DNA of 64,000 nucleotides from an uncultured Pseudomonadota bacterium (GTDB lineage: Bacteria > SAR324 > JACQKK01). Below are positions 1-28,237 of this stretch, in pieces. A model generated the notes under the pieces. It was not told the origin of the DNA. It saw only the letters and a list, made by a program, of their open reading frames with translations, and searched no databases. A program made the position numbers and the translations under genes. The DNA lies in contig CAZOXD010000004.1 of the NCBI GenBank assembly GCA_964583525.1, positions 1,909 through 65,908 on the forward strand, written 5' to 3'. The first letter of the stretch is position 1. Each line of letters starts with the position of its first letter.

Positions 1-600
1 CGGCTGTCCAGCCTTGGATTCAGCCGCGTGGAACTGATGCACAAGTTGGGCTATGCCAACACTGACAGGGGCCTCCGACGCTTCGATGATTTCCTGGCCA
101 CGGGCCGAATCACCACCCATCTACTGAAGGGTCTGCCCGATGTGCTGGGGCTGGACACCGTCGATGTGGAAGCTGCTTCCGCCACGACCCGCCAGCAGAT
201 CGCTGATGCTGAAGAAGCCGCTGCCCGCGAACGGTTCCGGCCTCACATTCTGGTGCTGACAGAATTTCCCCCCGGAATTCACTTCCCGGCGTTCGCCCAG
301 ATGTTTACATGGGGGCAGAAGTTGATTTCCCTACCGGATGAATTCGCCTGCCTGTCATCGACCCTGCAAGTGAAACAGGCCGCCCGCATCGTGCGCCGCC
401 ACTTCCATGAAACTGGTGGTGAGTTTACGGTGTGGGGCACCATCACAGGCTATCGACTGCAATGTACTTTCGATCATGCTGTAGTGCTGGAAACGGATGG
501 AACTATTCGGGAAGGTTTCGACCGGACAGGCGAACTCCCGGCCCCCGAAATCCGTATCAAGGGGAAGCGGGTGCCGGTGGGGGTGTTCGTGGGGGAATGA
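1..600 (+). CDS. Partial (5'-truncated by window) HTH-like protein, family unknown
   Basis: The frame is open from nt 1, so the start lies outside the window. 'LGFSRVELMHKLGYANTDRGLRRF' looks like an HTH segment and parallels 'LGMTRQQVIEKTPYQNISKGMLRL' of the gene at 36562. The C-terminal tail 'GFDRTGELPAPEIRIKGKRVPVGVFVGE*' recurs at 37242-37328. Confidence 0.5.
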   Translation, partial: RLSSLGFSRVELMHKLGYANTDRGLRRFDDFLATGRITTHLLKGLPDVLGLDTVDVEAASATTRQQIADAEEAAARERFRPHILVLTEFPPGIHFPAFAQMFTWGQKLISLPDEFACLSSTLQVKQAARIVRRHFHETGGEFTVWGTITGYRLQCTFDHAVVLETDGTIREGFDRTGELPAPEIRIKGKRVPVGVFVGE

Positions 601-664
601 CTGCCGTGTTCGCTTGGCTTGGATCGGGCCTAGGGCCTTGTTGTCGAATCGGACCAATATCGAT

Positions 665-1708: not shown

Positions 1709-1727
1709 ATCGCTTACACCCGACCCG

Positions 1728-2186
1728 TCAGTCGGTAGATTTTCGCAGAGCTTCAAGGATCCTCCGAATGCAGTTGTCAATGTCCCTTTCGATTTGGTGC
1801 TCCCATATGCGCACGACCTTCCATCCCTGTCTGCGCAGCAGCCTGTGGTTCCTGGCGTCCCTGAGCCTGTTCCCCTCGATCTTGCGTTCCCACTTCTCTG
1901 AGAGCTTATCCCTCCATTGCGGGAACCTCCATCCGTGCCAGAAGTCCCCGTCAACGAAGATGGCAACCTTTCCTTCGTCGAACGCGAAATCTGGTCTGCC
2001 TGGTAGGTCGCTGCGATGGCCGTCCCACTTCAGCCCGGCCCTCTCCAACTCCCCCGCAATCGCCCGCTCCGGCCCGGTGTCCCTCCCCCGTATCCGGGAC
2101 ATCACCCGGCTGCGAGTCTCCGGTGACATGATGTCACCCCGATGCCTCCGCTTTCGGGGTTGATTCCGCGCGTCATTTCTTACCAT
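1728..2186 (-). CDS. vsr: Very-short-patch repair endonuclease (Vsr)
   Basis: 'TGPERAIAGELERAGLKW', 'GRPDFAF', 'VAIFVDGDFWHG', 'GNRLRDARNHRLLRRQGWKVVRIWEH' match the Vsr signature. It sits directly upstream of dcm in the same transcription direction. Start chosen at ATG 2186 (alternative 2129). Confidence 0.88.
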   Translation of the reverse strand: MVRNDARNQPRKRRHRGDIMSPETRSRVMSRIRGRDTGPERAIAGELERAGLKWDGHRSDLPGRPDFAFDEGKVAIFVDGDFWHGWRFPQWRDKLSEKWERKIEGNRLRDARNHRLLRRQGWKVVRIWEHQIERDIDNCIRRILEALRKSTD

Positions 2187-2239
2187 ACTGGTGTATCCTT
2201 GTACTAATATTCCGCGAACTTGACTAGGTTTTCCGTGTA

Positions 2240-4897: not shown

Positions 4898-4954
4898 GTC
4901 GTCGGGGGGAATGACACTCGATAACGGGCCAGGGAGTCGTGAAGCGAGGAAATC

Positions 4955-7900
4955 ATGGGGAGCGACAAGGCGCCAGGTGCAGCCCGAGAGGCCATCATCG
5001 AATTCGTGGCCAGGGAACTTCTGGGACCTGGAAACGATCAGGTCGATCCCGAAACGGGACAGGAGTTGTTGCGCGCACAGGACCCGCCGAAGATCCGGTA
5101 CAGCACGGGAATTCTGTTCCCCCGGCGCTCCGCAACGTCCGACCAGGAGGAGCTTGGCGAGGAGACCCCGATTCGATCCTTCGAGGAACCGGATGACGGT
5201 AACGAATCCGGGCAGGAGGCTGACGATTCGACATTCGGCAGCGATTCAGATGGTGGGTCTGATACGGAAGAGAGCGTTAACTTGGCGAACCAGTACCTTC
5301 CGAGCGCGCTCGGGCTAAGCGCCCTGATCGACGAAGGATCGGACCTGGTGATCGCAATCAGGGCAGGGAGATATCGCAAGAAAACTGTCGAATTGGAGGC
5401 GTCCGAAACCGGGAAGCATGGGGGGCGTGAGCCGTCAGCGGATCCCAGCGGGAAGCTCTCTGCAGAGTGGTGGGCCAGGGAGCCGATCGAACACAATATC
5501 AGGGTGGATGCGGGGGAACTCTCGGGCAGGGAGAGGGTCGTCAAATGGATCGACCTGAACGCGCCGGATGAAGCGGGAGGTTTGAGGGTGCATGTTGTGA
5601 GCCGGGCCCGCGGGCGCGAGTCGGCCTCGGCTGAGAGCGAGCAACTGCTCACTATCACCCTAGTTAACTCCAACACGTTGACTACTGCTTCACCAAGCAA
5701 CGAGGATTGCTTTTTTCAGTGCTCGCTCCATGCCACGTGCGATCGGGGCTTCCTGCCCTACCCGGAGCTCCCGGCCGGCAGCGAGGACGAGGAGGCGGCT
5801 TCTCTCAGGCTGCTCTACCGGCACAAACCCACCTACGCCATCGGGCATGGGTGTGCGGCCGGCTGGTCCGGGCCAGCGAGGGGCCGTCCGACGTCCGTCC
5901 GGACGGAGGTTCTCCCGGTATTCGAGACCCCCCCCGTATTGCCGAGGGTGATCGAGGATCTGCCCCTGGGCTTCCTGGATTTCGCAGAGGGGGAGAGCGA
6001 GGCGTTGATCGAGGGATGCCGCTCGCTCGCGGAGCACTACTGGGCATGGATCGATCAAATCGAGAACCGCCTCGCAGGGGACCTGCCGGCCGACGATGCT
6101 GCAATAGCGGAAGCCGGCCGCCAGCATGTGGCGCTCTGCCGCGCATGCCATTCCAGAATCCATACTGGCATCGACCTGCTCGAGCGCGACGCGACGGTCA
6201 TGGAGGCCTTCCGGCTGATGAACCGGGCGATGTTGATGCAGCAGATGCATTCCGGACTTGCAGAGTCACCGAGGGAATGGAGGGATGACATGCCGGAGCA
6301 GCCCTTCACGAGGCCGGACGTGCACGGTGCCGATGCCGGCCGGCGGGGCTGGCGACTGTTCCAGTTGGCCTTCATCCTGATGAACCTGGAGTCCATGGCC
6401 GAACCTAGCTCGCTGGATAGGGGGGTGGTGGATCTCGTGTGGTTCCCGACTGGCGGCGGGAAGACGGAGGCCTATCTGGGACTTGCCAGCTTCACCATAT
6501 TCCTGCGGCGCCTCCGCAATCCCGGAAACGGCGGGATGACTGTATTCATGCGCTATACGCTCCGCCTGCTGACGGCCGACCAGTTCCGTCGCGCCGCGTC
6601 TCTGCTCTGTGCATGCGAAGTGATCCGGCGCGAGATGCCAGATCGGCTTGGTCGGGAGCGGTTCACGGTCGGACTGTGGGCCGGATTCGAGGTCACGCCG
6701 AACCGCGAGGATGACGCGATCAGAAAACTGAACGAGTTACAGCGGCAGGGCGACCCGGAGAGATCGCATCCCTTCCTGCTGCAATGCTGTCCATGGTGCG
6801 GAATCAGGCTTGGCGTGGTCGCGGGTGGCAAGCGTCGCGCACCTCCCGTGATCAAGGGATTCGTGTCTCGCCCCCGCTCACCTAAGTTCCGCATCATCTG
6901 CCCTGAAGCGGACTGCGACTTCAATTCCGAAGAAGGCATCCCCGTCCAGATCGTGGACGAGGCCATCTATGTGCAGCCTCCCACGCTTGTGATCGGGACG
7001 GTGGACAAGTTCGCCACTGTGGTTTTCCGGCCCGAGGCGCGGACCCTGTTCGGCATCGACGCACCGGGAGGGCCTTCGCCGCCGGAACTCATTATCCAAG
7101 ACGAGCTGCACCTGATATCAGGACCGCTGGGCTCGATGGTGGGCCACTACGAGACAGTCATCGACGCTCTATGCTCGGCGGAAGCGCCGGTCAAGATCGT
7201 GGCCTCGACGGCAACCATCTCCCACGCGCGCGAACAGATCCGCAAGCTGTACGGGCGCGATTTCTTCCTGTTCCCGCCCCAGGGACTGATCGCGGGTGAC
7301 TCCTTCTTTGCCGAGGAACGGCCGGATGTGACGGGACGTGCCTATGTCGGATTCATGGGTACGGCCAACCCCTCCCATGTAACATCCCAGGTCCGCGCGA
7401 TGGCCGCGCTGCTGCAGGCACCGCTGGTGGCCGAGCGGGACGGTCACGGTCCAATCGATCCCTATTTCACCCTGATCGCCTACTACAACAGCCTCAGGGA
7501 GCTGGGCCAAGCGGCCACGCTGATCAACGCCGATATCCGCGAGTACCTCAACGTGGTGTGGGACCGGATGGGCATCCGGAAGTCGGATGTCGCCGGGAAG
7601 CAGATGGACCCGAGGAGGTTCCCCAACAACGTGGTCGAGCTGACCAGTCGTGCATCCGCCGAGGAAGTCACGCGCAACCTTCAGCGGTTGCGGGTTCCCT
7701 ATGACGGGGTACGGCCTGTCAAAGCCGTGGACGCATGCCTCGCAACGAACATGATCCAGGTTGGGCTGGATGTTCTGCGCCTCGGACTGATGACGATCAC
7801 TGGTCAGCCGAAGACGACCTCCGAGTACATTCAGGCATCGAGCCGGATCGGTCGGCGGCATCCAGGCCTCGTGGTGACCAACTACAACGCTGCAAAACCG

Positions 7901-8395
7901 AGGGACCGATCGCACTACGAGCACTTCCGGTCCTACCACGAGAGCTTCTACCGGTACGTGGAGCCGACAAGCGTGACGCCTTTCGCCGTCCCCGTGCGGG
8001 AACGCGCCCTGCACGCGCTCCTGGTAATCCTGACCCGCATGTGGGGCGACTTGCGCACAAGGGAGCAACCGTGGCCATTCCCCCCGGAGTCCCTGATCCA
8101 AGGTGTCCAGAATGCAATCCTCGGACGCATCGAGGGCATGGAGAAGAGCGAAGTGGCTGGGGCAAGAAGGATGATCGAAGAATTCCTGGACGACTGGCGG
8201 CGGCTCGAACCGGAGCGTTACGGGAATTTCGACGTCCGACCGGACCCGAGGGTGCCGCTTCTGGTCCCGGCCGGCGGTGAGTGGCCGGAGGACTGGATTG
8301 GTCGCGTCAAGGAGGTGCCCATTTCGATGAGGAATGTGGACAGGGAGTGCCAGGTGCAGACGCTGAGCCGATATGGCAACAGGTCGGTGCTTTAA
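4955..8395 (+). CDS. drmA: Superfamily-2 DEAH-type helicase, DrmA-like
   Basis: Motif I 'FPTGGGKTEAYLG', motif II 'IIQDELHLISG', motif III 'VASTATI', motif V-like 'ATNMIQVGLDV', motif VI 'EYIQASSRIGRR'. A 'gagga' RBS precedes the ATG. A DUF1998 gene follows 27 nt downstream. Confidence 0.75.
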   Translation: MGSDKAPGAAREAIIEFVARELLGPGNDQVDPETGQELLRAQDPPKIRYSTGILFPRRSATSDQEELGEETPIRSFEEPDDGNESGQEADDSTFGSDSDGGSDTEESVNLANQYLPSALGLSALIDEGSDLVIAIRAGRYRKKTVELEASETGKHGGREPSADPSGKLSAEWWAREPIEHNIRVDAGELSGRERVVKWIDLNAPDEAGGLRVHVVSRARGRESASAESEQLLTITLVNSNTLTTASPSNEDCFFQCSLHATCDRGFLPYPELPAGSEDEEAASLRLLYRHKPTYAIGHGCAAGWSGPARGRPTSVRTEVLPVFETPPVLPRVIEDLPLGFLDFAEGESEALIEGCRSLAEHYWAWIDQIENRLAGDLPADDAAIAEAGRQHVALCRACHSRIHTGIDLLERDATVMEAFRLMNRAMLMQQMHSGLAESPREWRDDMPEQPFTRPDVHGADAGRRGWRLFQLAFILMNLESMAEPSSLDRGVVDLVWFPTGGGKTEAYLGLASFTIFLRRLRNPGNGGMTVFMRYTLRLLTADQFRRAASLLCACEVIRREMPDRLGRERFTVGLWAGFEVTPNREDDAIRKLNELQRQGDPERSHPFLLQCCPWCGIRLGVVAGGKRRAPPVIKGFVSRPRSPKFRIICPEADCDFNSEEGIPVQIVDEAIYVQPPTLVIGTVDKFATVVFRPEARTLFGIDAPGGPSPPELIIQDELHLISGPLGSMVGHYETVIDALCSAEAPVKIVASTATISHAREQIRKLYGRDFFLFPPQGLIAGDSFFAEERPDVTGRAYVGFMGTANPSHVTSQVRAMAALLQAPLVAERDGHGPIDPYFTLIAYYNSLRELGQAATLINADIREYLNVVWDRMGIRKSDVAGKQMDPRRFPNNVVELTSRASAEEVTRNLQRLRVPYDGVRPVKAVDACLATNMIQVGLDVLRLGLMTITGQPKTTSEYIQASSRIGRRHPGLVVTNYNAAKPRDRSHYEHFRSYHESFYRYVEPTSVTPFAVPVRERALHALLVILTRMWGDLRTREQPWPFPPESLIQGVQNAILGRIEGMEKSEVAGARRMIEEFLDDWRRLEPERYGNFDVRPDPRVPLLVPAGGEWPEDWIGRVKEVPISMRNVDRECQVQTLSRYGNRSVL

Positions 8396-8422
8396 CTTTT
8401 GAGCGCGCTTTCAGAGGGTGCC

Positions 8423-10273
8423 ATGGTTTCATGGAAACCGTTACGTCGGGGACAGTTGATATCGCCGTTCGGGGTTGGCGCGATCATCAACTTCCCCGGT
8501 GACGAGTCTTTGATGATCGCGGGGCTGGACGAGTGGCCATCAGCGGCTGGACCGTGTCCACCCGAGTGGGTGGTGCACGAGGAACGCCTGCAGGATCTGC
8601 TGGGAAGGGACCATTTTCGCCTGCCGCCGGACTTCAGGAAGTCCGATCCGAACCTCGAATTGCGCGGCAAACGCATCCCGGCCGTCCGGTTCCCGGGCTG
8701 GCACTACTGCCCGAGGCGCGGAATTATGCAACGACTCGGGCCGTTCTCGGAGCCCAAGCACTGTCCCTGCGACCCGCGTCTCGACTGTCATAGCCTGAAA
8801 TTCAAGCCGCGCCTCATCCCGGTTCGTTTCATCAGGGCCTGCAGGCGAGGCCACGTGGATGACTTCCCGTTCATGGCATGGCTGCACGATGGCCAGGATC
8901 CGGGTGACCACACCCTGCGCATGCTGGCGGGCCGGTCGTCCGCCGCCCTGTCCGGCATCAGGGTGGAGTGCCGCACCTGCTCGGCCAGGAAGTCCATGGC
9001 CGGGCTCCTGCGCTCCGACGAGGACAGGGGTGGCCCGCTCGGCAAACTCGCACGCTGCAGGGGAAACATGCCGTGGATCGCCGATTCCGAGGGGTGCGAC
9101 GAGACGATGCGGGTTCTGCAAAGAGGGGCGTCGAACGTCTATTTTCCTGCCGTCGCGAGTTCGATCTACATCCCCCGGTGGCGGTCGTCCGAATCCCGAA
9201 GGATCAACGACCTGTTGGACAGGCATTGGGACAGAATCCAAAGTCGAGTGCGGGAAGGTGCGCTCGACGAGGGGTACCTGACCGGCCTCGCCGACGGGCA
9301 CAAAGTGGACGCCCATCGCCTTATCGCGGCCGCGCAGGAAAGACTGGAAGGTACAGCTGAGCCCCGCCAAGCAGGGGAAACCCGCGAGGAAGAAATGCGG
9401 GCCGAGGAGTACGAGGCGCTGCTGGTTGACGGAGGACATGAGACAGACGAGCTGATGGTGAGTGTCAGAAATGCGGGCGAGTACGGCATGGGCGCGGTGC
9501 CCCATCTTTTCAGCCACATCTCACTCGTGAAGAAACTCCGGGAAACCAGGGTATTCCGCGGATTCACTCGCATTGTCCCGCCGGACGACGAAAACGCGCC
9601 GGCGGCAGTGCCGCTTCACCGCGGGGACCTTCGCTGGCTCCCCGCGATCGTGGTCCGTGGGGAAGGGATCTTTATGGAAGTCAACCAGATCAGTCTCCAG
9701 CAATGGGCGGCCCAGCCGGAAGTCCGGGAGAGGATCGGGAGTCTGGCCAAGGCCTTCAACACATCGAGACAGGGCCGGGGCCTGCCGCCCCGCCTCGTCC
9801 CTCCGGAGTTCGTCCTGCTTCACTCCATTGCCCACGGTCTCATAGTGCAGCTTAGCGTGGACTGCGGGTACGGAAGCGCATCACTTCGCGAGAGGCTCTA
9901 TTTGGGCGAGCGGATTGACCGCGGTCTCATGGCTGGCATCCTGATCTATACCGCCGCGGGAGACTCGGAAGGCACGCTGGGCGGTCTGGTGCGTCAGGGT
10001 GCACCTGACCGCTTCGCCATCACGGTGGAGAGGTCGCTGGACCGCCTGTCATGGTGCTCCAGCGACCCAGTCTGCGTCGAGAGTTCCGGACAGGGGAACG
10101 AGAACGCCAATCTCGCGGCGTGCCACGGCTGCCTGCTCGTTCCCGAGACGTCATGCGAACACGGGAACCGGTTCCTGGACCGGGGGCTTATTGTGGGAAC
10201 GCTTGAAGAGCCGGCCATAGGCTTCTCGAATGGCCCACGCAAAGTGGACTCCTTGACACTGGATACTGGATGA
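8423..10273 (+). CDS. drmB: DUF1998 (MrfA-type Zn-ribbon) protein, DrmB-like
   Basis: C-terminal 'CSSDPVCVES...ACHGCLLVPETSCEHGNRFLDRGL' is the DUF1998 Cys cluster ending in N..LDR. The track starts at TTG 8399. ATG 8423 has a 'gaggg' RBS and is preferred. Confidence 0.75.
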   Translation: MVSWKPLRRGQLISPFGVGAIINFPGDESLMIAGLDEWPSAAGPCPPEWVVHEERLQDLLGRDHFRLPPDFRKSDPNLELRGKRIPAVRFPGWHYCPRRGIMQRLGPFSEPKHCPCDPRLDCHSLKFKPRLIPVRFIRACRRGHVDDFPFMAWLHDGQDPGDHTLRMLAGRSSAALSGIRVECRTCSARKSMAGLLRSDEDRGGPLGKLARCRGNMPWIADSEGCDETMRVLQRGASNVYFPAVASSIYIPRWRSSESRRINDLLDRHWDRIQSRVREGALDEGYLTGLADGHKVDAHRLIAAAQERLEGTAEPRQAGETREEEMRAEEYEALLVDGGHETDELMVSVRNAGEYGMGAVPHLFSHISLVKKLRETRVFRGFTRIVPPDDENAPAAVPLHRGDLRWLPAIVVRGEGIFMEVNQISLQQWAAQPEVRERIGSLAKAFNTSRQGRGLPPRLVPPEFVLLHSIAHGLIVQLSVDCGYGSASLRERLYLGERIDRGLMAGILIYTAAGDSEGTLGGLVRQGAPDRFAITVERSLDRLSWCSSDPVCVESSGQGNENANLAACHGCLLVPETSCEHGNRFLDRGLIVGTLEEPAIGFSNGPRKVDSLTLDTG

Positions 10274-10478
10274 TGTCGGGTTTTGTTTTATCGTCTTATT
10301 GTGCCAAACTCAGTTGGCGGCCGTCACTTGGTTCTTCCAGAGCACCCTACGACGTGCCACCCACGCAATTCGATGGTCACGTAATTCTCCACGACAATTC
10401 TCGCGCACATTGTCGGTGAGCGCTAGAATTGCGTGATAAGCAATTTCCGAATCGTGGGAATCTGATGGCAGACGTGCC

Positions 10479-11342
10479 ATGAAACGACGACCGACATTGT
10501 CGCTCGGTGGACGTGTCGGCTCCGCAATCGTTGGCGTGCTAACGGTGACACCGGAAGAGTCTAGGGATATCAAACCATATTTCGGCACCACATATCCCAT
10601 TCTCGATAGCCCATATTACTCGCGTTTCAATGACCCTACGATCAAGTCTCATGACGTGGTACTAAGACAGCTTGGCGACCGAGGTAATGACGTTTCCGCA
10701 CTCGGCGCGAAGGCATTGATCGAGGATTTTCGCCCCTCCTATATAATACTGGTTGGCATCGCAGGTGGAGTGAGCGGTCGGGACAATACGGAGCTAGGAG
10801 ACGTTGTAGTTCCAATATTCATTGACGGCTATGAAATGCGGAAACTTACGAAAGGTACGAACAAGAAACGCACCTCTGCTTATGACCATCCGAGTTATCG
10901 CCTCGTACGTTTCTTTGCAGAACATGTTGGAAATTCGTCAGACTGGCTTCAGCGTGTGAACACACCTCGACCAACCGATCGCAGCCAGCAACAGCCGAAA
11001 ATGATTCTCGGAACTCTCATATTTGGCGAGAAGATTCTTGGCGATGACACCAATGACTATCAGCGTTCGATTTTAAATGAATTTGACAACGCCGTCGCAG
11101 TGGACATGGAATCCGGTGGTCTAGCGCGGGCCGTGTATGAAGCGCGGATAACTAAACACTACAACCCTCTATACTTGGTCGTTCGCGGAATATCCGATCC
11201 CGTTAATGAACCTGATAATGATGATATTCGGAAAGTCTGGAGGCCCTATGCGGCACATGTCGCCGGCGCATTCGCTGCCGAAACCGCCACGAGTCTGATC
11301 AATCAAGAGTATGCCACTGCTGCAGTCAAATCAGCGGGATGA
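10479..11342 (+). CDS. PNP/UDP-1 family nucleoside phosphorylase/nucleosidase-fold protein (candidate nucleotide-cleaving effector)
   Basis: 'IILVGIAGGVSGR' and 'AVAVDMESGGLARAV...YLVVRGISD' are the phosphate- and ribose-binding signatures of the PNP_UDP_1 fold. The gene lies in an AT-richer block, directly upstream of a STAND NTPase. Confidence 0.8.
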   Translation: MKRRPTLSLGGRVGSAIVGVLTVTPEESRDIKPYFGTTYPILDSPYYSRFNDPTIKSHDVVLRQLGDRGNDVSALGAKALIEDFRPSYIILVGIAGGVSGRDNTELGDVVVPIFIDGYEMRKLTKGTNKKRTSAYDHPSYRLVRFFAEHVGNSSDWLQRVNTPRPTDRSQQQPKMILGTLIFGEKILGDDTNDYQRSILNEFDNAVAVDMESGGLARAVYEARITKHYNPLYLVVRGISDPVNEPDNDDIRKVWRPYAAHVAGAFAAETATSLINQEYATAAVKSAG

Positions 11343-11388
11343 TGCTCCCACAAAATGGAACACTAGTCGTCAGCGAAAGGAGATCGCC

Positions 11389-13320
11389 ATGACTGGAACT
11401 CAGACCAACCGTTCGATCGAGTTCTCGTTCGAAATCGCTTGGACGCGCAACTACAGTGGCCTCTTTCAAAACACATTCTTCGAAAATACACCGATTGACG
11501 GGATCCTGGACAAGGCCAGGAAATCAGGTCGCATCATGCTTTGCGGCAAAGGAGGAAGTGGCAAGACGACAATCGCGGTTCGTTTGTGTGAGAACGCACG
11601 CCGCGAGGGCTACTCCGCCGTTTTCGTCAAAATGAGGAATTGGACGCGAACACTCCAAGAAATGTGGGACCAGTTCGATGAACATCCGATATCCCGTGCA
11701 AATTTCCTCCTTAGCAATCTTGGTGAGCCTTCCAATGGTCTTCCATCGCTGGACAGTTTGGAGCCGAATCGGCCTAAACTGATAGTTTTCGACGGACTAA
11801 ATGAAGTGCACTTACGTACTGGAGGAGAGATTATCGTCGCTGCAGATTGGCTGGCTGGGGCGTTCATGAACATCTCCGTAATCACGACTGACCGCCTCGT
11901 GCGGCGTGACATTAATCAGGACCGATGGAGTCTTGGCATGGTGCTTCCGCTCAAGGATGAGGAAGTCCGTGAGCTGCTCACCAAGGCCATAGCCCGAAAC
12001 GCGTGGGAAAAGCTGACAGATCGTCAGCAACATATGTTGGAAAGCCCGTTCTTCCTAGACAAAGTGCTCAAGACACACAAGATTCCCCCTACGTCTGCCG
12101 AGGTTATTGGCGACTATCTTCGGGAGCACGCCACGCTGTCAGAGCAAGCCTTGGACGCCTTGGCTCGGGGAGCATTCGCGACATACGGAGCTGGGTTTAG
12201 TGGGCGGTCGTTTCCCAAGGAAGCCCTTCTCAAGGGCTCAGAGGCAGACGCGGTGCGAAGATTGGAGGAGGCTGGATTCCTTGCGGGCGCAGACGACACA
12301 GTCTATTTTGATCACCATCTAGTCCACGACTACTTGGCGGCTCGATACTTGGCTGTGCACTCAGAGAAATGGGAAGAGAAGGCATTCGATGCCATTAGCT
12401 TCAATGCCAGCTCATTCGACGCAATCGCGAAAGTCCTCGAGCAACTGGACAGTAATCGAGCCGACGAGTTCATCCGTAGGGTGTATGACTGGAACCCGTA
12501 TGCGGCTGCTTATGCAATCTCTGATACCGCTTCGTCTGAGCGTCGTGTGAGCGAGGAAATGGAGGTTGTAATTACCGCGATGCTTGCGGAACGACGCTGG
12601 GACCTCATTCTACCAACAGTCACCAGGGCGGAGGACGCGCTTGCCATCATTAGCACCGAACTAGCAATACGATATCTCGGTGCTGGGACCATGGAGGAAG
12701 TGCTAAAAATGGTTGGGGACCAGCACAGCGATGCGGAATGGTTCCTAATTTGGAAGCAGCTATTCACTCGACGGCCGCATCAGGCGGCCATGGATAGTGA
12801 CATTCAGCTGCTCAGTTCGGCAGACTCGATTTTGGGGTGGACCATGGCGAATAAACTAAGACGGCTCGACATCAACGAACAACAGTCCGTTAGTGTTCGG
12901 GATCTAGCTGCAAACGCGGCGTCTGGTGCAGTCCGCTGGCGTGCAGTTCATGTTCTCGGAGCCTTTCCAAGCCGAGAGAATTGGAAATCGCTTTTTGCAC
13001 GGTTCGAAGAGGATCAGTACGAGTGGGTGAGATATGGTGCATTAAGATCGCTAATGGAGAATGCTGCAAAGTCGCAGGCTCTCCGATCCGAAGTACTTGG
13101 GGCGTTGTCGGAAAAGGCTGGATTACTTATGAGCAGTGCTCGTCTAAGGAATGAATTCTATCGTGCATCGTTCGCCGAGATAGTAGGAGAGGACGGCAAA
13201 CGTTGGATTGCGGAGTTGGGGCGCGTCGTTCGGTCGCTTGCCGATCATTCTCGGGACGAAAAAGACCTGGAACTATGGGCTCGACTGAGCCGAGAATTGG
13301 ACAAACGTTACGCAGCGTAG
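11389..13320 (+). CDS. STAND/NACHT-like P-loop NTPase with C-terminal HEAT-like repeats
   Basis: Walker A 'LCGKGGSGKTTIAV', Walker B 'KLIVFDGLNEV'. C-terminal 'VRWRAVHVLGAF...EWVRYGALRSLMENA' is HEAT/PBS-lyase-like. ATG 11389 has an 'aaaggag' RBS. The track start at 11311 overlaps the PNP gene. Confidence 0.8.
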   Translation: MTGTQTNRSIEFSFEIAWTRNYSGLFQNTFFENTPIDGILDKARKSGRIMLCGKGGSGKTTIAVRLCENARREGYSAVFVKMRNWTRTLQEMWDQFDEHPISRANFLLSNLGEPSNGLPSLDSLEPNRPKLIVFDGLNEVHLRTGGEIIVAADWLAGAFMNISVITTDRLVRRDINQDRWSLGMVLPLKDEEVRELLTKAIARNAWEKLTDRQQHMLESPFFLDKVLKTHKIPPTSAEVIGDYLREHATLSEQALDALARGAFATYGAGFSGRSFPKEALLKGSEADAVRRLEEAGFLAGADDTVYFDHHLVHDYLAARYLAVHSEKWEEKAFDAISFNASSFDAIAKVLEQLDSNRADEFIRRVYDWNPYAAAYAISDTASSERRVSEEMEVVITAMLAERRWDLILPTVTRAEDALAIISTELAIRYLGAGTMEEVLKMVGDQHSDAEWFLIWKQLFTRRPHQAAMDSDIQLLSSADSILGWTMANKLRRLDINEQQSVSVRDLAANAASGAVRWRAVHVLGAFPSRENWKSLFARFEEDQYEWVRYGALRSLMENAAKSQALRSEVLGALSEKAGLLMSSARLRNEFYRASFAEIVGEDGKRWIAELGRVVRSLADHSRDEKDLELWARLSRELDKRYAA

Positions 13321-13352
13321 CCCTGGCATAACAGGCGCTGGGAGTTTAACTC

Positions 13353-13820
13353 ATGGCGGACTGGGACAATCGATTCATTGAGCTCGCAGTTCGCATCGGC
13401 GAATGGAGCAAGGACGAAAGCCGGAAGGTCGGTTGTGTAATTGTTGGCCCAAGCAATGAGATTCGGTCCACCGGGTACAACGGCTTTCCGAGGGGTGCCA
13501 AGGACCATTTGTCGGAGCGTCATGAAAGGCCGGCCAAGTACAAATGGACGGAACATGCCGAGCGTAATGCGATCTACAACGCAGCTCGTATTGGCATGGC
13601 ACTGGACGGTTGCCGCATGTACCTCCCGTGGTTCCCCTGCATGGACTGTGCTCGAGCTATCGTGCAAGCCGGAATTGTCGAACTGATTGCAGTTGAGCCG
13701 GATTTCTCTGACCCGCGTTGGGGTGGTGATTTTACCGACGTCCCACATCTCTTGGACGAAGGAGGGGTGAAGGTGCGGTACTGGACAAGGAGGATGCCGG
13801 AACCGGATGCTGGCGAGTAA
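13353..13820 (+). CDS. dCMP/cytidine deaminase (ComEB-type zinc deaminase)
   Basis: 'HAERNAI' (HAE zinc and catalytic Glu) and 'PCMDCARAI' (PCxxC) at canonical spacing. It lies 32 nt after the STAND gene on the same strand. Confidence 0.9.
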   Translation: MADWDNRFIELAVRIGEWSKDESRKVGCVIVGPSNEIRSTGYNGFPRGAKDHLSERHERPAKYKWTEHAERNAIYNAARIGMALDGCRMYLPWFPCMDCARAIVQAGIVELIAVEPDFSDPRWGGDFTDVPHLLDEGGVKVRYWTRRMPEPDAGE

Positions 13821-13923
13821 ATCTCGCACTGGCGCATGCGGAATTTGGCAACCGACGCGTGCCCGGCCGGCACGTTCACCTCCGGAAGGGGCTCGGCTAA
13901 GTTCAACGGCCCTTCATGGCTGA

Positions 13924-14388
13924 TTGATGATTTGTCGAACAGCAGCGTCTCAGGCTCGGGGCGAAGGGGCGGCTCTGGCAGCGGGCCATCGATCCTGTGG
14001 GGAATGCCGTCGGCCCGACTACGTCCGCTTCAAGGACGCTTGGGCCACTGTCAACGGCCTGGACGCCGGAACGGTGAAGGCAGGGGACATGGACAGGGGC
14101 CTGCACCCGGATCGGGTGGTGGGTAGGGGGAAGCACCGGCCCAAGCCCACCTTCACCACCACGTTGGATTCCATCCCGGATGGCGTGATGTTCCATCGTC
14201 AGGAAGACGATCAGGTGGCACTGCTGAAGTGGAAGGGCGGGGCCTGGGTCTGGGCACCGGAAGGGTACGGGGAAGGGATGGTGCTGGGTCAGGGGCAGCG
14301 CATCGAAGTCCTGACTCCAAAGACGGTCGTCGGGGTCATCCGGGCAGGCTATGTGCCTATGGTGCATGGGTCGCTATTGCAGTCGTAA
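13924..14388 (+). CDS. Hypothetical protein (start uncertain)
   Basis: The C-terminal 60 aa 'QVALLKWKGGAWVWAPEGYGEGMVLGQGQRIEVLTPKTVVGVIRAGYVPMVHGS' are conserved in a second, degenerate copy at 14969-15150, which argues that this frame is the real one among several overlapping GC-rich ORFs. Confidence 0.45.
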   Translation: MMICRTAASQARGEGAALAAGHRSCGECRRPDYVRFKDAWATVNGLDAGTVKAGDMDRGLHPDRVVGRGKHRPKPTFTTTLDSIPDGVMFHRQEDDQVALLKWKGGAWVWAPEGYGEGMVLGQGQRIEVLTPKTVVGVIRAGYVPMVHGSLLQS

Positions 14389-14919
14389 ACGATACAAGCG
14401 ATGGTCTTGGGCCTTTCCGGCGTCAGCTTCGACAAGACGGAACCCGTTTTTTTCCAGTACCCGTATGGAGGCCGGATTGTCTGCGTCAACTCCCCCGGCC
14501 AATGTGGCAATGGATGCCTGCGTTCGACACCAGTCAACAAACCCCCCGACCAATTCGGTGGCCAGTCCTCTACCCCAGGCCGGTTCTGACAGCAGGTAGC
14601 CCAGCCGAACCTCAATGCCGTCGATGGCATTTTCAGAATCGACTTCGATCAAGATCACCAGCCCGACAGGTTCCTTGGTCGATTTATCGATGACCAGAAG
14701 GGTCGTTCCCTCCTTGTCACGCTCTCTTACCCACTCACGCGCACGGGACACCGTGTAGCTGCCTTGCCAAGCCGTTGGGAGTGTCCGCGTGACCGGTTCG
14801 GTAAGCATGGTCGCCACAACCTGGGCAAGGCTCCCATGCTGCCTGTCAGGAGGTGAGAGCGAATGCCATTCCGCGACGACCAGACGATCTGTTGTGAATG
14901 AGCAGGACTTGCAGATCAT
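14374..14919 (-). CDS. GNAT family N-acetyltransferase (RimJ/RimL-like)
   Basis: 'TDRLVVAEW', 'LGYLLSEPAWGRGLATELV' (Q/RxxGxG/A acetyl-CoA loop) and 'NPASIRVLEKNGFRL' are typical GNAT motifs. Confidence 0.85.
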   Translation of the reverse strand: MICKSCSFTTDRLVVAEWHSLSPPDRQHGSLAQVVATMLTEPVTRTLPTAWQGSYTVSRAREWVRERDKEGTTLLVIDKSTKEPVGLVILIEVDSENAIDGIEVRLGYLLSEPAWGRGLATELVGGFVDWCRTQASIATLAGGVDADNPASIRVLEKNGFRLVEADAGKAQDHRLYRLRLQ

Positions 14920-14968: not shown

Positions 14969-15150
14969 TAGGAAGGCTATCAGGTGGCCTTGCTGAAGTG
15001 GAAGGGCAAGCCCTGGGCCTGGGCACCGGAAGGGTATGGGGGAGGCCCCAGGGGCGGATCAGGGGCAGCGGGTCGAAGTCCTGACGCCCAGAACGGTCAG
15101 GGGCGTGATCGGGGCCGGGTACGTGCCCAGGGTGCATGGGTCAGTGCAGA
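14969..15150 (+). pseudogene. Degenerate duplicate of the 3' end of the 13924-14388 gene
   Basis: Nucleotide-level similarity to 14198-14385. It translates 'QVALLKWKGKPWAWAPEGYG' and then, after an indel, 'GQRVEVLTPRTVRGVIGAGYVPRVHGS' in another frame. No N-terminal part is present. Confidence 0.6.
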
Positions 15151-15289
15151 AGGGTGAATGGGACGCTGGCGGGACACTCGCTGGCAAAGAATGGCCGCAA
15201 TTCACGGTAAGCAGCAATATGAAAACTGAAAGATGTTATTGTTTTCATTATTATAATCTGTTGCTGTTGATCGTCTTGCGTTATTTGGG

Positions 15290-15346
15290 TAGGACTCAAA
15301 ATCCAGTGGGGTTAAACCCGTGTCGGTTCGAGTCCGACCCTCGGCA
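15290..15346 (+). tRNA. 3' portion only of a class-II tRNA-Leu(CAA)-like gene (possible att-site remnant)
   Basis: Anticodon loop 'CTCAAAA' (CAA at 15297-15299). Long variable arm 'GGGgttaaaCCC'. T-arm GTCGG/TTCGAGT/CCGAC at 15322-15338. Acceptor 3' strand CCTCGGC plus A. The required 5' acceptor strand GCCGAGG and a D-arm are absent upstream. Confidence 0.5.
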
Positions 15347-16278
15347 TTCCTCCTGTTATCAACTGTTTCCGCAAATACTCGTTGGCTTATAAAGCGACAC
15401 ACTATCCTCGTTATTTGGTTCGCGGGACACTGATGGGACACTCGGAAAAGACCAACCCCGATAGATGGCGAAGCCTCACAGCCTGATCATACAAGCTCGT
15501 CCCGATCCGGATTCGGACGCCTCCGACCTGGTGCGCCAGTGCAAAGCACCGTCCTGCCTCACCGTCTTTATAAGCCGCAAGGCTGTAATCTCCGCGATCG
15601 AGAATTCCCAAGGACAAGCACGTCCTGATGGACCTCGCCACTCACATCACCAAGCTGCTGGTCAATGAAAAGTCTGAGTTGGTGAAGCTGATTGAGGTGC
15701 GGTAATTATTTTCCTTGCATAACGCATCCTTCCTGTATTAAGAAAGCGACACCTCTTGAAAACACCACCGAAAAGGAGAGGCTCCGGTGGATATTATCAA
15801 GGAAAAAACCGCGTATTGTGTCCGGGTTGATCCACCAATACCAGCCGCGTTGGATTTAACCCGCCCCTTTACCCATCTCACTGCATCATTGCCATATCAC
15901 CAGGGATCGGCAGCGATTTCGGGCCGTATTGTGCCCAAATCCAGGCATGATCTGGTAATCCCGGAATTTAAATTGTTGGCGGGAAAGCAAGGCAGGGCGA
16001 GGGATTGTGGCAATATTGGAGGGACGAGGAATTCCCGGAAATTTGCGATGTTTAACGCAAGGAACGCGGGTGGGTCAGCGCATTGTAACAGTCTACATCC
16101 CCCCCTGTAGAATTTGGCGTATTGAATCTCTTGGGAAGGGAGGGGGCAACGCAAGGATTAACTCTCAGGGTTTTGCAAATTGGCTGAGGGCAGGTCTCTC
16201 GCCGCAATTGCGACCACATGAGAGAAATCAGGGTTCAAATGGGCCTACTGTAATCCAGAGTCACCGAACAGCCACGCT

Positions 16279-17445
16279 ATGACAACAGGACTTCGAGCTA
16301 AGACAATTCTGGACGGAGATTGGGCCTTAGAATTCCATGACTTCTCCGCGGCCTGGGCAATGGCACCATTGCGCCCGGAAGGTAGGCAGAAGGGAGAGGG
16401 CATTGCCGTGGTTCATCCGGATACTGGATACACGGAGCATCCGGAACTCATGGACGGCGACCGATATCTTATCGACCCCGGTATTTCCAGAAATTTTCTC
16501 CAGGGCACTGGCTACATGCTCAGGCCCGAACTACGCCCCGCGGTCGACAATTTGACTGGCTCAAGCGCAAGTCACGGCACCAAGACGGCAAGTGTTCTTA
16601 TGAGCGCCGAAGACTTCCCGGATGAAACATTATTCCCCGACTATTCTGCGGAGAAGGCCATATGGGGTGTGGCGCCCAAAGTCGAATTGATTCCTTTCCG
16701 GGTGGCCAAATCCGTTGTGCTATCAGTCTTAAGTTCAGTAGCACTTGGGAAATCCCTCTTCTATATCGTGGATAAGCTAGATAGCAATTTGGTAGGCGTG
16801 GTCTCAATCAGCCTAGGTGGGAAGGACATCACACTTATTAATAAAGGAAAGACTCTTATAGAGCACGCCCTTCGTATTGCGCGAAAGAAGGGAATTATCG
16901 TCTGCGCGGCAGCCGGACAAATGCAGACTGACAATGAACTTGGGGATTTACTTGCGAGTCATTTCTCGCCTGCGTTTCCTGGCATAGATTCTAACACAAT
17001 ATGTGTGGCGGGATGCAAAGTAAATAAGAATTATCCAGAGGATAACTCTGAGCATTACCCGCCGATTCATTCTGGGTTCTTGGGGCCCGAAGTAGTCGTC
17101 ACTGCGGCAGCCTATGATCTATGGGTTGCAAGAGCAGCCGAAGGAGATCCCAATCCGACCTATAGTGTGGAGAGATCCTGGGGAACCTCCTATGCAACGG
17201 CAATTGTAGCTGGCGCATGCGCTTTGTGGCAGGCTTTTCATGGCAGGCAATGGTTACTAGATCCTTCCAATTATGGACCCGAATTGATTTTTCCATTGTT
17301 CAAAGAGGTGCTAAAAAGAACGGCTTTCAAGCCATCTGGGTGGGATGCCTCCAACCGCGGATTTGGAGTGTTGGATGCAAAGAAACTCTTAGAGGAGCCT
17401 TTACCGACGAAATCCGAAATCGAAGCGCTCAATAATGGAACCTAA
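16279..17445 (+). CDS. Subtilisin-like serine peptidase (S8 family), no signal peptide
   Basis: Catalytic triad motifs in D-H-S order: 'AVVHPDTGYT', 'SASHGTKTASV', 'SWGTSYATAIVAGA'. The N-terminus 'MTTGLRAKTILDGDW' has no hydrophobic leader. Confidence 0.9.
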   Translation: MTTGLRAKTILDGDWALEFHDFSAAWAMAPLRPEGRQKGEGIAVVHPDTGYTEHPELMDGDRYLIDPGISRNFLQGTGYMLRPELRPAVDNLTGSSASHGTKTASVLMSAEDFPDETLFPDYSAEKAIWGVAPKVELIPFRVAKSVVLSVLSSVALGKSLFYIVDKLDSNLVGVVSISLGGKDITLINKGKTLIEHALRIARKKGIIVCAAAGQMQTDNELGDLLASHFSPAFPGIDSNTICVAGCKVNKNYPEDNSEHYPPIHSGFLGPEVVVTAAAYDLWVARAAEGDPNPTYSVERSWGTSYATAIVAGACALWQAFHGRQWLLDPSNYGPELIFPLFKEVLKRTAFKPSGWDASNRGFGVLDAKKLLEEPLPTKSEIEALNNGT

Positions 17446-17450
17446 GAGAA

Positions 17451-20400
17451 ATGTCTAGACTCGATGATTTCTGCAAAGAGTTGATCTGGTTCGTGCAGCC
17501 GGTTGTTGAAGCTGTTGAAGACGAGGAATCGCTGAAGAGTTTTTTCTCAGAATTTGGATACGACCTGACAGGTTCAGACACAGAAATCGGGAACGCGGTC
17601 ACAGAGATTCGCGACACACTTTATCCGATTCTTCAGGGGCTAGGCACTGCTTTGGCGGACGGTTCTCTAGACTTATCAGTCCCTCAAGAACTACTTACCA
17701 CAATTAGATCAACCGGTGAAAGTCAATCGATTCAGAGCCTCATAGCCGATGCAAGCGAGTTCCCAGGCGAGCTTTTCTCGCACCTATTTTACCATTACAT
17801 TTCTACGAAGATTGGGATATTGTCCGCCCTTTTGGAGGCATTTGGCGTTATCACCATTACTAGAGTGACCACTGCGGACGCTGGCGGTAGGGACTTGGAT
17901 TACGACAAGGTGGAGCTTCACTGGGACAGGCTTGGCGTGTTCGTAACAGACAGCGGAAAGTGGGCAAAGGAAGTTTACGGTTGGGGGGCTACTCTGGATA
18001 CCGATGGCCGCATTTTCGACTATGAAAAAGCAATTGCTAGTCTGGCTCACCTGATAGAATCAACCCAATTGGTTCTCTCCCGAAAGCAAAACCTCACACC
18101 GACTGAAGCGGATTTCTTTCTCGCGAATCGCGGTGGGATAACGGTCAATGAAGTTGTTATTCCTTTTTTTCAAGATGAGTTTGAATCTGTTGATGATGCC
18201 GGAGATCCAGAATTCAGGAATGAGATTGGGCTAAAGGTTCTGCCATCGGGAGACTTGAACCAGCCGGCCAATCTGGGTTTGGCAATGGCTCCTTTCGCTA
18301 AGGGAACCCTGCCTCTCGAGATTGCGCTTTCAGATAACCTGACAATGAATTTGGTGTCTTCGGCTTCTGCTACGGGTGGCGTCTATCTTCGACTAACCCC
18401 TGACGGCGTTGAGGTAATGGGTGGAGGAGTGTTCGGAGCGGACTTCAGTTTTGGCTTCACATATAGAAATGCTGACAATTCACCTGCCGTATTGGTTGGA
18501 GGAGAGGGGCAAACTCGACTGGAGTCAAGTTCCATTGGCACCCAGAGTGGAGTTAGTATCGGATCCGGTTCGACACCAGAAGTGTTTGCGGAGTTTTTCA
18601 TCCAGGGCGGTGCCCTGGTAATCCAGGGAGGTGACGGGGACGGCTTCATCCAAAAGATTCTTCCGCAGGACCCCATCACGGTTCTGTTTGATTTGACGCT
18701 GGGTGTCTCCAACACCAAGGGCTTTTACGTCAAGGGCGGGGCAGGGCTGGAATACACCTTCCACGTCAACCAGGAAATCGGCCCAATATTCATCGGCACG
18801 ATCGATCTCGCGATTTTCTTAAAGGACGGGAACATCGAACTCAATACCGCGCTGTCCGCCGGAGCCAGCCTGGGGCCGATTAAGGCCTCGGTATCCAAGA
18901 TCGGGCTGAAGGCTCTGCTGGAGCCGGGCAAAAAGGGATTGTTGGGATTTGCCGACCTCTCTTTGGGCTTTAAACCGCCGACGGGGATCGCGCTGGGAAT
19001 CGACCCTCCGCCGGTCAGGGGCGGAGGCGGGATCTTCATCGACCCGCCCAACTACACGGGCATCCTCAACTTGACGATCGAGGAGACCGTTGACGTTACG
19101 GCGATCGGCCTGTTGACCACGGAGATGCCCGGGGGCCAGCCGGGTTTCTCGCTGCTGATCTCCCTCTCCGCGCGCTTCTCGCCGATCCAACTCAGCTTCG
19201 GCTTTGCGCTCACCGGCGTGGGCGGGCTGATCGGCATCAATCGGACGATGCTGGAGGAGCCGCTGCGCGATGCCTTCAAGCGGCACACACTGGACTACAT
19301 CCTGTTCCCGGAAGACCCCATTTCCGATGCGGCGCTGATCATAGACGCGATCCAGTCCGTCTTTCCTCCGCGCGAGGACCGCTTCGTCATCGGACTGATG
19401 GGCGAGATCATCTGGGGCTCGGCGACACCGCTGGTCGTGTTCAACTTCGGTGTCATCATCGAACTGGGCGGCCCGGGGCTGGTCGTCCTTATTGGGCAGG
19501 GGTCCACAGCACTGCCGACGAAAGAAACGCCCGTCGTGGAGATCAATGTGGACCTGCTCGGCTTCATTGACCTGGGCGCCGAGACCGTTGCCATTGACGC
19601 GGAACTCTACGATTCGCGTATCACCGTCTACCCCCTAAGCGGGGAGATGGCCTTGCGTAGCGGCTGGGGCAGCGAGGCGGACTTCATTTGGTCGATGGGT
19701 GGATTTCATCCGCGCTTCAACCCGCCGCCCGGTTTCCCCAGGCTGGACCGCCTGATGATCAGCCGCGACCTTGGCGTGGTCTACATGTCGCTGGAGTGCT
19801 ATCTGGCCATTACGACCAATACCTTTCAGGTGGGTGCGCTGCTGTCCATCGATGGCGATTTTGGAGTGGCCTCCGCCAAAGGCGGGACGTCCTTCGATAC
19901 GTTGATCAAGTTCAGCCCGTTCTCCTTTGACGTGGATTTTAAGCTGTGGCTTGACCTGAAGGTAGCGGGCGCTCAGGTGGCCGAACTGGACGTATCTTTG
20001 AATCTGACGGGTCCGAATCCGTTCCACGCGATCGGCTATGCCCATTTTTCCATGCTGTTCATTTCGGTGGACGTGGACGTGGATATCACGATGGGAGAGC
20101 GCATCCCGGCGCCGCCGCCCGAGGTCTCCCCGTTCGACAAGGCGCTCGAGGCCTTCCAGGACGTGCGCAGCCTAGTGTTCGAGCTGCCGGACTGGGCCAG
20201 TTCTCACGTATCGTTGCTGGGCGCCGATCCCTCGCTGCAACTGGAGGGACCTGCAGTCACGCCTAAATTGCTGGACCCGGCGGGGAGTGCTGTGGTCTCG
20301 CAGGGCACTATGCCGCTGGCGCTACGGCTGGATCGCGTCGGAGGCGGGACACCGCCCGCAAACGAGCGCTACCTGGAGCTGATCACCGCGCTGCCGTCCG

Positions 20401-23819: not shown

Positions 23820-23821
23820 CC

Positions 23822-28234: not shown

Positions 28235-28237
28235 GCC

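Follow-up and report, generated by a model that had tools for sequence, protein, structure and literature searches.

Purine nucleoside phosphorylase (PNP) domains cleave (d)ATP in the anti-phage systems CBASS and Detocs, and have also been noted at the N-termini of Avs proteins (Rousset et al., bioRxiv 2023.01.24.525353). Fusions of PNP to Avs proteins or to relatives of the nucleotide-binding leucine-rich-repeat receptors (NLRs), PNP ATP nucleosidases, anti-phage dCTP deaminases, and pairs of an NTPase with a deaminase (RADAR) are all known. Effector swapping is the pattern of those STAND proteins (signal transduction ATPases with numerous domains) that belong to conflict systems (Kaur et al., PMC7159879, PMC8195603), and no deaminase partner is mentioned in a 2026 survey covering 589 STAND clades, the sensor analysis of which was limited to C-terminal regions of at least 400 amino acids (aa), longer than the one described here. 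We describe three adjacent genes in a 64,000-nt stretch (the window) of contig CAZOXD010000004.1, from an uncultured SAR324 bacterium, that code for a PNP-fold nucleosidase, a STAND NTPase with a C-terminal HEAT solenoid, and a cytosine-nucleotide deaminase. On balance, and by a modest degree, we think it probable that these form a three-gene NLR-like anti-phage cassette that was acquired separately from the DISARM genes beside it.

The linkage of the three genes is conserved. A scan with the NTPase profile of one genome per GTDB species gave 48 loci, 46 of them evaluable, in the Acidobacteriota, Alpha- and Betaproteobacteria, Actinomycetota, Nitrospirales, Aminicenantes, Entotheonella and a metagenome-assembled genome of the Treponemataceae, and a separate PNP gene lies directly upstream of the NTPase gene on the same strand in 36 of the 46. 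A scan of metagenome contigs started from the PNP, counting homologues with at least 600 nt of downstream sequence, found the HEAT NTPase directly downstream of 42 of the 48 homologues that are at least 32% identical to the window's PNP, versus two of 22 below 32%. There are also PNP-NTPase-HEAT fusions, in six clusters (P0187, P0198, P0441, P0444, P0445 and P0447) among the best 150 family representatives, and a translationally coupled deaminase gene follows the fusion in both contigs inspected (P0187 and P0198). Because synteny is conserved from both sides and Rosetta-stone fusions exist, the case from sequence for a functional link between the PNP gene and the STAND-HEAT NTPase is strong. 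The deaminase gene adjoins the NTPase gene in 33 of the 46 evaluable loci (~70%; 35 counting one convergent and one overlapping case), and three deaminase homologues (71–73% identical), picked solely for their long contigs and among them that of Bradyrhizobium diazoefficiens (L131), all lie inside a cassette. The deaminase gene comes first in L021, L079 and L134 and is inverted in L011 and L050, with linkage kept. The sequence-only reading of this DNA had proposed a two-gene unit and a check of PNP-STAND co-occurrence; the pairing stands, from either side and in the fusions, but the unit has three genes.

PNPs less than 32% identical to the window's are found in other multidomain proteins or beside another NACHT protein. 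The latter arrangement is seen in L106 (5843–9611), where the gene downstream of that for a 318-aa PNP (25% identity with the window's) codes for an 891-aa P-loop/NACHT-like protein outside the HEAT family; this suggests that PNP/STAND splitting arose more than once.

The PNP protein scores above the Pfam cut-off for PNP_UDP_1, which spans residues 18–251 of 287, and matches PADLOC models PDC-M60C (E 2.7e-15) and the CBASS 'Effector PN-superfamily' (5.7e-9). It fails the equivalog model for the MTA/SAH nucleosidase (MTAN), with 49.7 bits versus a cut-off of 169, and is ~20% identical to E. coli MtnN. The catalytic-type residues (Table 1) align with the Met-Glu and Ser-Asp motifs of MTAN, and E27, M210, E211 and R236–D240 are invariant in 32 PNP homologues. 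In tblastn, immune PNPs (E 4e-19 to 2e-17) rank ahead of MTAN (2e-9); the Nostoc plasmid pNPM2 codes, next to a CBASS cyclase, for a PNP-SAVED protein with 33% identity across the matched region (E 2e-17), and the other best plasmid-encoded matches are HNH-PNP, AAA-PNP, TPR-PNP and PNP-TIR proteins. By neighbour joining the cassette PNPs form a single clade, whose sister group is the PNP domains of the fused PNP-NTPase proteins; in 98 of 100 bootstraps they group with CBASS PNP-SAVED, HNH-PNP and PNP-TIR proteins to the exclusion of MtnN, Borreliella MTAN, Amn and DeoD. By these sequence comparisons the window PNP belongs with immune-type PNP domains and not with housekeeping nucleosidases. 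A PDB profile search detected no immune PNP structure; the grouping with immune PNPs, the MTAN-type residues and the published activities of Cap17 and DtcC point by analogy to a predicted ATP/dATP nucleosidase.

The NTPase scores just below the curated Pfam cut-offs (NACHT, PF05729, 19.0 versus 26.7 bits; nSTAND3, PF20720, 25.4 versus 27.2; HEAT_2 is also below), and its fold was therefore tested by structure prediction; some homologues carry precomputed PF05729 matches. The AlphaFold2 model, from a 78-sequence alignment, has a mean pLDDT of 92.9 and a pTM of 0.90, and its best PDB matches in Foldseek (E 1.7e-8 to 1e-4, probability 1.0) are NOD2, NLRC4, NLRP9, NLRP1, the NLRP3 NACHT, Avs4, Avs3, Avs5 and plant NLRs. 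The family profile matches HEAT-type alphaRep proteins at positions ~483–575 (E 7e-30). Motifs and model together display the features of STAND/NLR-like proteins, namely Walker A and B, a helical domain, a winged-helix His and C-terminal repeats; residues G56, K59, D135, E139, D168, R169 and R173 are invariant in 78 homologues, and H309–H313 is conserved in at least 90%. As modelled, the protein is a NACHT-like STAND with a HEAT solenoid, and neither Pfam nor the model has a DNA-binding output domain. A search of 1.84 billion proteins at E ≤ 1e-30 puts the family at a moderate 620 representatives when clustered at 50% identity; of the best 150, over 90% stand alone, with lengths of ~640–680 aa. 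Among 72,556 plasmids nothing matches the NTPase, and in IMG/VR a single contig does; we reject plasmid or phage carriage of the cassette on these grounds.

Most of what the sequence-only reading had said of these two genes is borne out. The open reading frames (ORFs) of the 287-aa PNP-fold protein and the 643-aa NTPase lie where it placed them (ORF listing, Shine-Dalgarno sequence, PF01048 and AlphaFold2 fold), and all four motifs that it quoted are present, ILVGIAGGVSGR and VDMESGG in the PNP and GKGGSGKTT and LIVFDGLNEV in the NTPase. The STAND/NACHT-like assignment with a HEAT C-terminus agrees with the structural and alphaRep matches, with Pfam below threshold. It had named as refuting outcomes a grouping of the PNP with housekeeping enzymes and a lack of synteny with STAND genes; neither is found, because the PNP falls outside MtnN, Amn and DeoD and its synteny with STAND genes is conserved.

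The third gene codes for a protein with the zinc motifs of the dCMP_cyt_deam_1 family (PF00383, E 1e-21), and its closest solved structure is PDB 7FH4 (E 3e-28), the bifunctional dCMP/dCTP deaminase of chlorovirus PBCV-1. Two deaminase families are present in cassette loci: a dCMP-deaminase type in 12–13 loci, 59–69% identical to the window's, and a cytidine-deaminase (CDA) type in ~22 loci, nearest to tetrameric CDAs (E 3e-16). The type switches at least three times on the NTPase tree. Because hardly any member has lost a zinc or catalytic motif (they are intact in 119–120 of 120 of the dCMP type and 48–49 of 49 of the CDA type), the deaminases are predicted to be active enzymes, not decoys. 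A deaminase is present in all fused or alternative-effector variants examined except L029, and no recurrent substitute was found in the loci that have none, some of which are followed by insertion sequence elements.

The effector position is variable. A Trypco1 gene is paired with a Trypsin_2-NTPase in L044, L046, L049 and L136, an EAD8-NTPase is found with EAD8-bearing neighbours in L029, and a gene for an LCAT-like lipase (alpha/beta-hydrolase) lies upstream of one for a 902-aa NTPase in L024; the NTPases of L038, L040, L042 and L045 have N-terminal domains of 250–330 aa with no Pfam match. The cassette is sporadically distributed and horizontally transferred over at least six phyla. These arrangements bear on a non-immune alternative, namely that a signal-transducing STAND ATPase controls the nucleosidase and deaminase within a module for nucleotide salvage or stress. 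Both enzymes do come from mostly housekeeping families, the deaminase is very conserved, and many STAND clades are non-defence; nonetheless, the trypsin/Trypco1, EAD8 and lipase-like modules with which family members are fused or paired typify conflict systems, and the sporadic distribution, the clustering of the PNP with CBASS-type effectors, the atypical composition in the window, the defence-island locations and an NTPase with no DNA-binding output domain also count against salvage, which we hold to be highly unlikely.

The most likely function of the cassette, by analogy with Avs and NLR proteins, would be an NLR-like abortive infection in which ATP/dATP is depleted and the deaminase acts on the pool of dC nucleotides. 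The NTPase would be kept off in an ADP-bound state, as in Avs and NLR proteins (the fold match and intact motifs are observed), until the HEAT solenoid detects a sign of infection (a conserved phage protein being the likeliest) and ATP binding leads to oligomerisation. The split PNP stands where the fused relatives have their N-terminal effector, and the oligomer would recruit or activate it; the activated PNP would then cut the N-glycosidic bond of ATP/dATP, starving phage replication and causing abortive infection or growth arrest. The deaminase, which is the weakest step, may work on the deoxycytidine nucleotide/nucleoside pool as an accessory second effector or pool conditioner, a role proposed because the gene is conserved, its two families are interchangeable and the active sites are intact.

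Several observations weigh against this mechanism. Within the same loci deaminases are 59–81% identical, versus 34–47% for the PNPs and 32–36% for the NTPases, and the HEAT region is the best conserved part of the NTPase (top-residue frequency 0.50–0.52, versus 0.44–0.47 in the NTPase module), which also fits binding of a conserved host partner. A 135–155-aa single-domain deaminase with no obvious regulatory domain would, if constitutive, behave as a harmless housekeeping enzyme, and the deaminase is not essential to the core, because several actinobacterial lineages keep PNP and NTPase without it. The PNP tree is a small neighbour-joining set without authentic Cap17 or DtcC sequences. Finally, no terminal motif is common to the PNP and the NTPase N-terminus (local alignment, three loci; scores no higher than the shuffle mean), and a paired adaptor of the amyloid/BASS or EAD (effector-associated domain) type is rejected on this basis; the NTPase fold starts at ~residue 15 and PNP_UDP_1 fills most of the PNP, leaving no space for an adaptor domain.

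The strong conservation of the deaminase relative to its partners, and that of the HEAT domain relative to the rest of the NTPase, would be in keeping with a deaminase that is no effector but regulates the NTPase as its partner, be it as a guarded host-like enzyme, a co-receptor or a sensor of the nucleotide pool. The HEAT domain would read the state of the deaminase, for example a dCTP/dTTP-dependent conformation of its oligomer or its inhibition by a phage protein, and the sole real effectors would be the variable modules, PNP and trypsin among them. The deaminase is retained with the NTPase as effector modules change, and the NTPase stop and deaminase start codons abut or overlap in L131, L144 and L145, suggesting stoichiometric production; there is also a precedent in Avs7, a STAND sensor with abundant host EF-Tu as cofactor (bioRxiv 2026.01.04.697583). 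Against such a role, the dCMP and CDA types swap at least three times among close NTPases, which chemistry explains more easily than a protein surface does, the catalytic residues are strictly conserved, and whole clades hold PNP and NTPase with no deaminase. Family switching, catalytic conservation and clade-level losses appear, from sequence, to fit an accessory enzymatic role better than a regulatory or guardee one, and we consider a regulatory partner unlikely, if deserving of serious attention.

The cassette follows a class-2 DISARM locus (window positions 1–10273; DrmMII, DrmE, DrmA and DrmB), its flanking genes having been named as DISARM from the sequence alone, and coordinates are collected in Table 1. 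The NTPase could start at the first ATG of its ORF, at 11311 (669 aa), or at 11389 (643 aa), and the 643-aa form is the likely protein because an AAGGAG Shine-Dalgarno sequence lies 7 nt before the latter and homologues are 637–680 aa long. The deaminase gene starts 32 nt past the NTPase stop and has its own Shine-Dalgarno sequence, GGGAG. A promoter of the cassette's own probably lies in the gap that separates drmB from the PNP gene, by inference only; a consensus scan of this gap found no sigma-70-like site on the + strand, and promoter and terminator counts do not exceed the shuffled expectation. Neither the gap nor the cassette leader has an Rfam match better than E 0.31, the leader fold is unremarkable (z-score just -1.8), and a regulatory RNA (an AvcI-like small RNA or riboswitch) is rejected for these two reasons.

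Table 1. Positions of genes and features in the window, with assignments and scores where available.
Feature	Position	Strand	Details
DrmMII	665–1966	-	class-2 DISARM, C5 methylase
Vsr-like ORF	1728–2345	-	tblastn 1743–2138, 42% identity to L041 Vsr; overlaps 5' end of DrmMII ORF
DrmE	2240–4897		class-2 DISARM
DrmA	4955–8395		E 6e-217
DrmB	8399–10273		E 9e-76
Intergenic region, drmB/PNP gene	10274–10478	+	205-nt gap; GC 0.512 vs 0.635 in drmB
PNP/MTAN-fold nucleosidase	10479–11342	+	predicted effector; 287 aa; PF01048 E 5e-13
PNP E27	10557–10559		catalytic-type residue
PNP M210-E211	11106–11111		catalytic-type residues
PNP S239-D240	11193–11198		catalytic-type residues
NACHT-like STAND NTPase, C-terminal HEAT solenoid	11389–13320	+	predicted sensor/switch; 643 aa
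NTPase Walker A, G53–T60	11545–11568	+	P-loop
NTPase Walker B region	11776–11805	+	D135 and E139
NTPase HHLxHD motif	residues 309–314	+	winged-helix His
NTPase helical/HEAT region	12379–13188	+	~residues 331–600
dCMP/dCTP-deaminase-family zinc deaminase	13353–13820	+	conserved third gene; 155 aa; GC 0.564
Deaminase HAE	13554–13562	+	H68-A69-E70
Deaminase PCMDC	13635–13649	+	residues 95–99
S8 subtilase (388 aa), 2122-aa DUF6603 protein, 1523-aa protein, 463-aa protein	16279–29629	same strand
SNF2 helicase	37864–40914		DpdE 2.5e-215 / DrmD-like
DrmMI/type-IIG-like N6 methylase	40921–44904
PD-DExK nuclease	46888–47727		DUF6602/NucC-like
DruE-like helicase	47753–52990		with MZB domain
ADP-ribosylglycohydrolase	53170–54720		fused to DSP-phosphatase
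Avs2	56547–61241		full-length; 1618 bits

Composition sets the cassette apart from the DISARM genes. GC and third-position GC (GC3) are 0.503/0.486 in the PNP gene and 0.532/0.565 in the NTPase gene, versus 0.629/0.765 in drmA and 0.635/0.754 in drmB, in agreement with the AT-richer block that the sequence-only reading had seen by eye; the low-GC block runs on past the NTPase into the deaminase gene, and the contrast is to be read against a window that is mosaic throughout (GC 0.46–0.68). No convincing direct or inverted repeats were found around 10274–13900, the lone long repeat flanking a downstream GNAT gene, and with no tRNA genes in the window a tRNA integration site is likewise rejected. 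The repeat is a ~170-nt segment in two copies (14201–14372 and 14970–15142), 79–87% identical and 770 nt apart, which bracket the leftwards-transcribed GNAT acetyltransferase gene (14374–14919) and carry related ORF fragments (13924–14388 and 15036–15392); it looks like a partial gene duplication or a GNAT insertion.

The same region raises the alternative that the cassette is a DISARM accessory in place of the missing PLD nuclease DrmC. It begins 205 nt past drmB on the same strand, the DISARM locus has no DrmC, and the PLD motif HxKxxxxD is found nowhere in the window. However, none of the 48 related loci has the cassette together with drmA and drmB; a DrmA-like gene is present in one of the 48, and DrmB and DrmE in none. 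GC3 is also ~0.2–0.27 apart from that of drmA and drmB, the cassette is found in many unrelated contexts, and DrmC is reported to be dispensable in DISARM. With DISARM genes absent from the related loci, we reject the cassette as a DISARM component replacing DrmC and give an accessory role almost no credence.

Judged by its gene content, the window is a large defence island. The Vsr-like ORF overlaps the start of the long DrmMII ORF; because the methylase domain starts only at residue 103, the true DrmMII start is probably near 1660, and vsr and drmMII would then be a pair. The cluster at 16279–29629 has no PADLOC matches, its 1523-aa and 463-aa proteins have no Pfam match, and GC rises within it from 0.50 to 0.66; it may be another uncharacterised conflict system. 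In Bradyrhizobium diazoefficiens (L131; CP067102, 6961364–6973840), a cultured strain with a complete genome, a ThiF/Prok-JAB pair borders the cassette on one side and a DDE transposase on the other, a group II intron reverse transcriptase is close by, and this strain would be a convenient experimental entry point.

Neighbours that recur at related loci are C5-cytosine methyltransferases (C5-MTases), Vsr, HhH-GPD glycosylases, a four-gene set with Z1 and HATPase_c_3, and Mrr. The cassette lies unusually often, far above chance, beside a C5-MTase and a T:G-mismatch repair gene (Vsr or HhH-GPD). Against a published null of ~1.5% for a random gene near a defence system, 16 of 48 loci give P ~1e-17. 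Examples with C5-MTase/Vsr neighbours include L005, L006, L034, L051, L052, L058, L065, L067, L071–L073, L086, L087, L094, L134, L144 and L145, and some loci, such as L058, have a contiguous MTase-Vsr-PNP-NTPase-deaminase string. Should the cassette prove to be a defence system, this adjacency would suggest that restriction-type and abortive-type immunity cooperate.

A further reading starts from these neighbours, with the deaminase as a constitutive sanitiser of 5-methyl- and 5-hydroxymethyl-dCMP/dCTP that backs 5-methylcytosine (5mC) restriction or DISARM against phages with modified cytosine, and the PNP and NTPase as a separate abortive layer. Flanks were usable at 79 non-redundant cassette loci: 25 of these have a C5-MTase no more than 3 kb away, 29 have a C5-MTase, Vsr or HhH-GPD gene at that distance, and 38 have one if the limit is set at 10 kb. 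C5-MTase models are also the top PADLOC families among the 121 nearest neighbours, in a scan so saturated by redundant C5-methylase models that counts for other families were not obtainable. The window cassette itself adjoins a DISARM locus with a C5 methylase and a Vsr-like ORF, both cassette deaminase families act on cytosine bases, and small single-domain members of the deaminase family can prefer 5mC and 5-hydroxymethylcytosine (5hmC) triphosphates (bioRxiv 2024.12.05.627091). The C5 link may, however, merely mirror the richness of defence islands in C5-type restriction-modification, the counts covering C5-MTase, Vsr and HhH-GPD genes only; about half of the loci have no C5-MTase within 10 kb, and an operonic deaminase that is translationally coupled to the NTPase is left unexplained. 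We regard a sanitiser as distinctly improbable. A broader proposal that we find doubtful, slightly less so than the sanitiser, is that the deaminase is the true novelty and the core is the NLR-like NTPase plus this free-standing enzyme, with interchangeable killing modules (PNP, trypsin, lipase, EAD) and a tie to 5mC restriction/DISARM; the deaminase would destroy the 5m/5hm dCTP/dCMP of escape phages, or such nucleotides, or the state of the deaminase, would be the signal read by the HEAT domain.

If the abortive-infection cassette that we favour is real, it would be an unnamed defence system spread over several phyla (Acidobacteriota, Alpha- and Betaproteobacteria, Actinomycetota, Nitrospirota and others; ~620 clusters at 50% identity), in which a bacterial NLR drives a separately encoded ATP nucleosidase without a recognisable adaptor motif. 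It would also be a natural split version of a PNP-NLR architecture that is found in fungi and animals too, and its combination of an NLR-like switch with a cytosine deaminase could mean a joint attack on purine and pyrimidine pools, or nucleotide-pool sensing. Were the broader proposal of an NTPase-deaminase core correct, in either form, a new logic would join epigenetic self-marking, nucleotide-pool surveillance and NLR signalling. The small deaminases may interest developers of base-conversion enzymes.

Among described systems, the Avs and bNACHT proteins with an N-terminal PNP (Rousset et al. 2023; Gao et al. 2022; Kibby et al. 2023) resemble the cassette in their NACHT-like STAND, C-terminal alpha-solenoid sensor and PNP effector; effector swapping is common to both, and the cassette family includes fused PNP-NTPase-HEAT members. 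They differ in that over 90% of the cassette family have their effector encoded separately, by a gene upstream, the sensor is short (~310 aa) with HEAT-type and not TPR-type repeats, and there is a conserved cytosine deaminase partner, of which we came across no description for any Avs or bNACHT system. At E ≤ 0.1 none of the PADLOC Avs models hits the NTPase, although they readily recognise the Avs2 encoded elsewhere in the window. Cap17 of CBASS and DtcC of Detocs share with the cassette the PNP/MTAN fold, the catalytic Glu, Met-Glu and Ser-Asp motifs, and the PN-superfamily model match. There is, however, no CD-NTase, SAVED or TPALS domain in or next to the cassette (Pfam, PADLOC), and no histidine kinase or receiver domain, so that the DtcA, DtcB, DtcC architecture is absent; the upstream signal would come from a STAND NTPase and not from a cyclic nucleotide or phosphorelay.

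The anti-phage dCTP deaminases (Tal et al. 2022) and AvcD (Hsueh et al. 2022) have a homologous deaminase domain (NCBIfam antiphage_deaminase E 2.6e-19, PADLOC dCTPase 1.3e-20) and share with the cassette the idea of dC-nucleotide depletion. Theirs are proteins of 430–630 aa with an N-terminal P-loop kinase-like domain, unlike the bare 155-aa catalytic domain of the cassette, which scores 69.4 bits against the full-length model NF041025 (cut-off 400) and aligns over its core only (339–388 of 437). The sole P-loop protein of the cassette is the separate NLR-like NTPase, and no AvcI-like RNA was detected. RADAR, with RdrA ATPase and RdrB adenosine deaminase, is an analogy only, in pairing a large oligomerising NTPase with a separately encoded nucleotide deaminase; the deaminases are non-homologous, RdrB having an amidohydrolase/ADA fold and acting on (d)ATP and the cassette enzyme being a CDA-fold cytosine deaminase, and RADAR has no PNP. 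Adaptor-coupled two-gene NLRs (fungal HET-S/NWD2, bacterial BASS/Bell, and the EAD systems of the Aravind laboratory) likewise have effector and STAND in adjacent genes, and L029 has EAD8, but the cassette has neither a shared adaptor motif nor room for an adaptor.

The PNP-STAND pair had been taken for an unnamed system; PADLOC-DB v2 and NCBIfam r20 do not cover it, but PNP fused N-terminally to Avs/NLR-like proteins was already published (bioRxiv 2023.01.24.525353). No cassette of STAND, PNP and deaminase is present in PADLOC-DB v2, NCBIfam r20 or the full-text literature searched, and relative to these sources what is new is an NTPase-HEAT family with a mainly split PNP effector that has no recognisable adaptor, and with a conserved, interchangeable cytosine deaminase as its partner.

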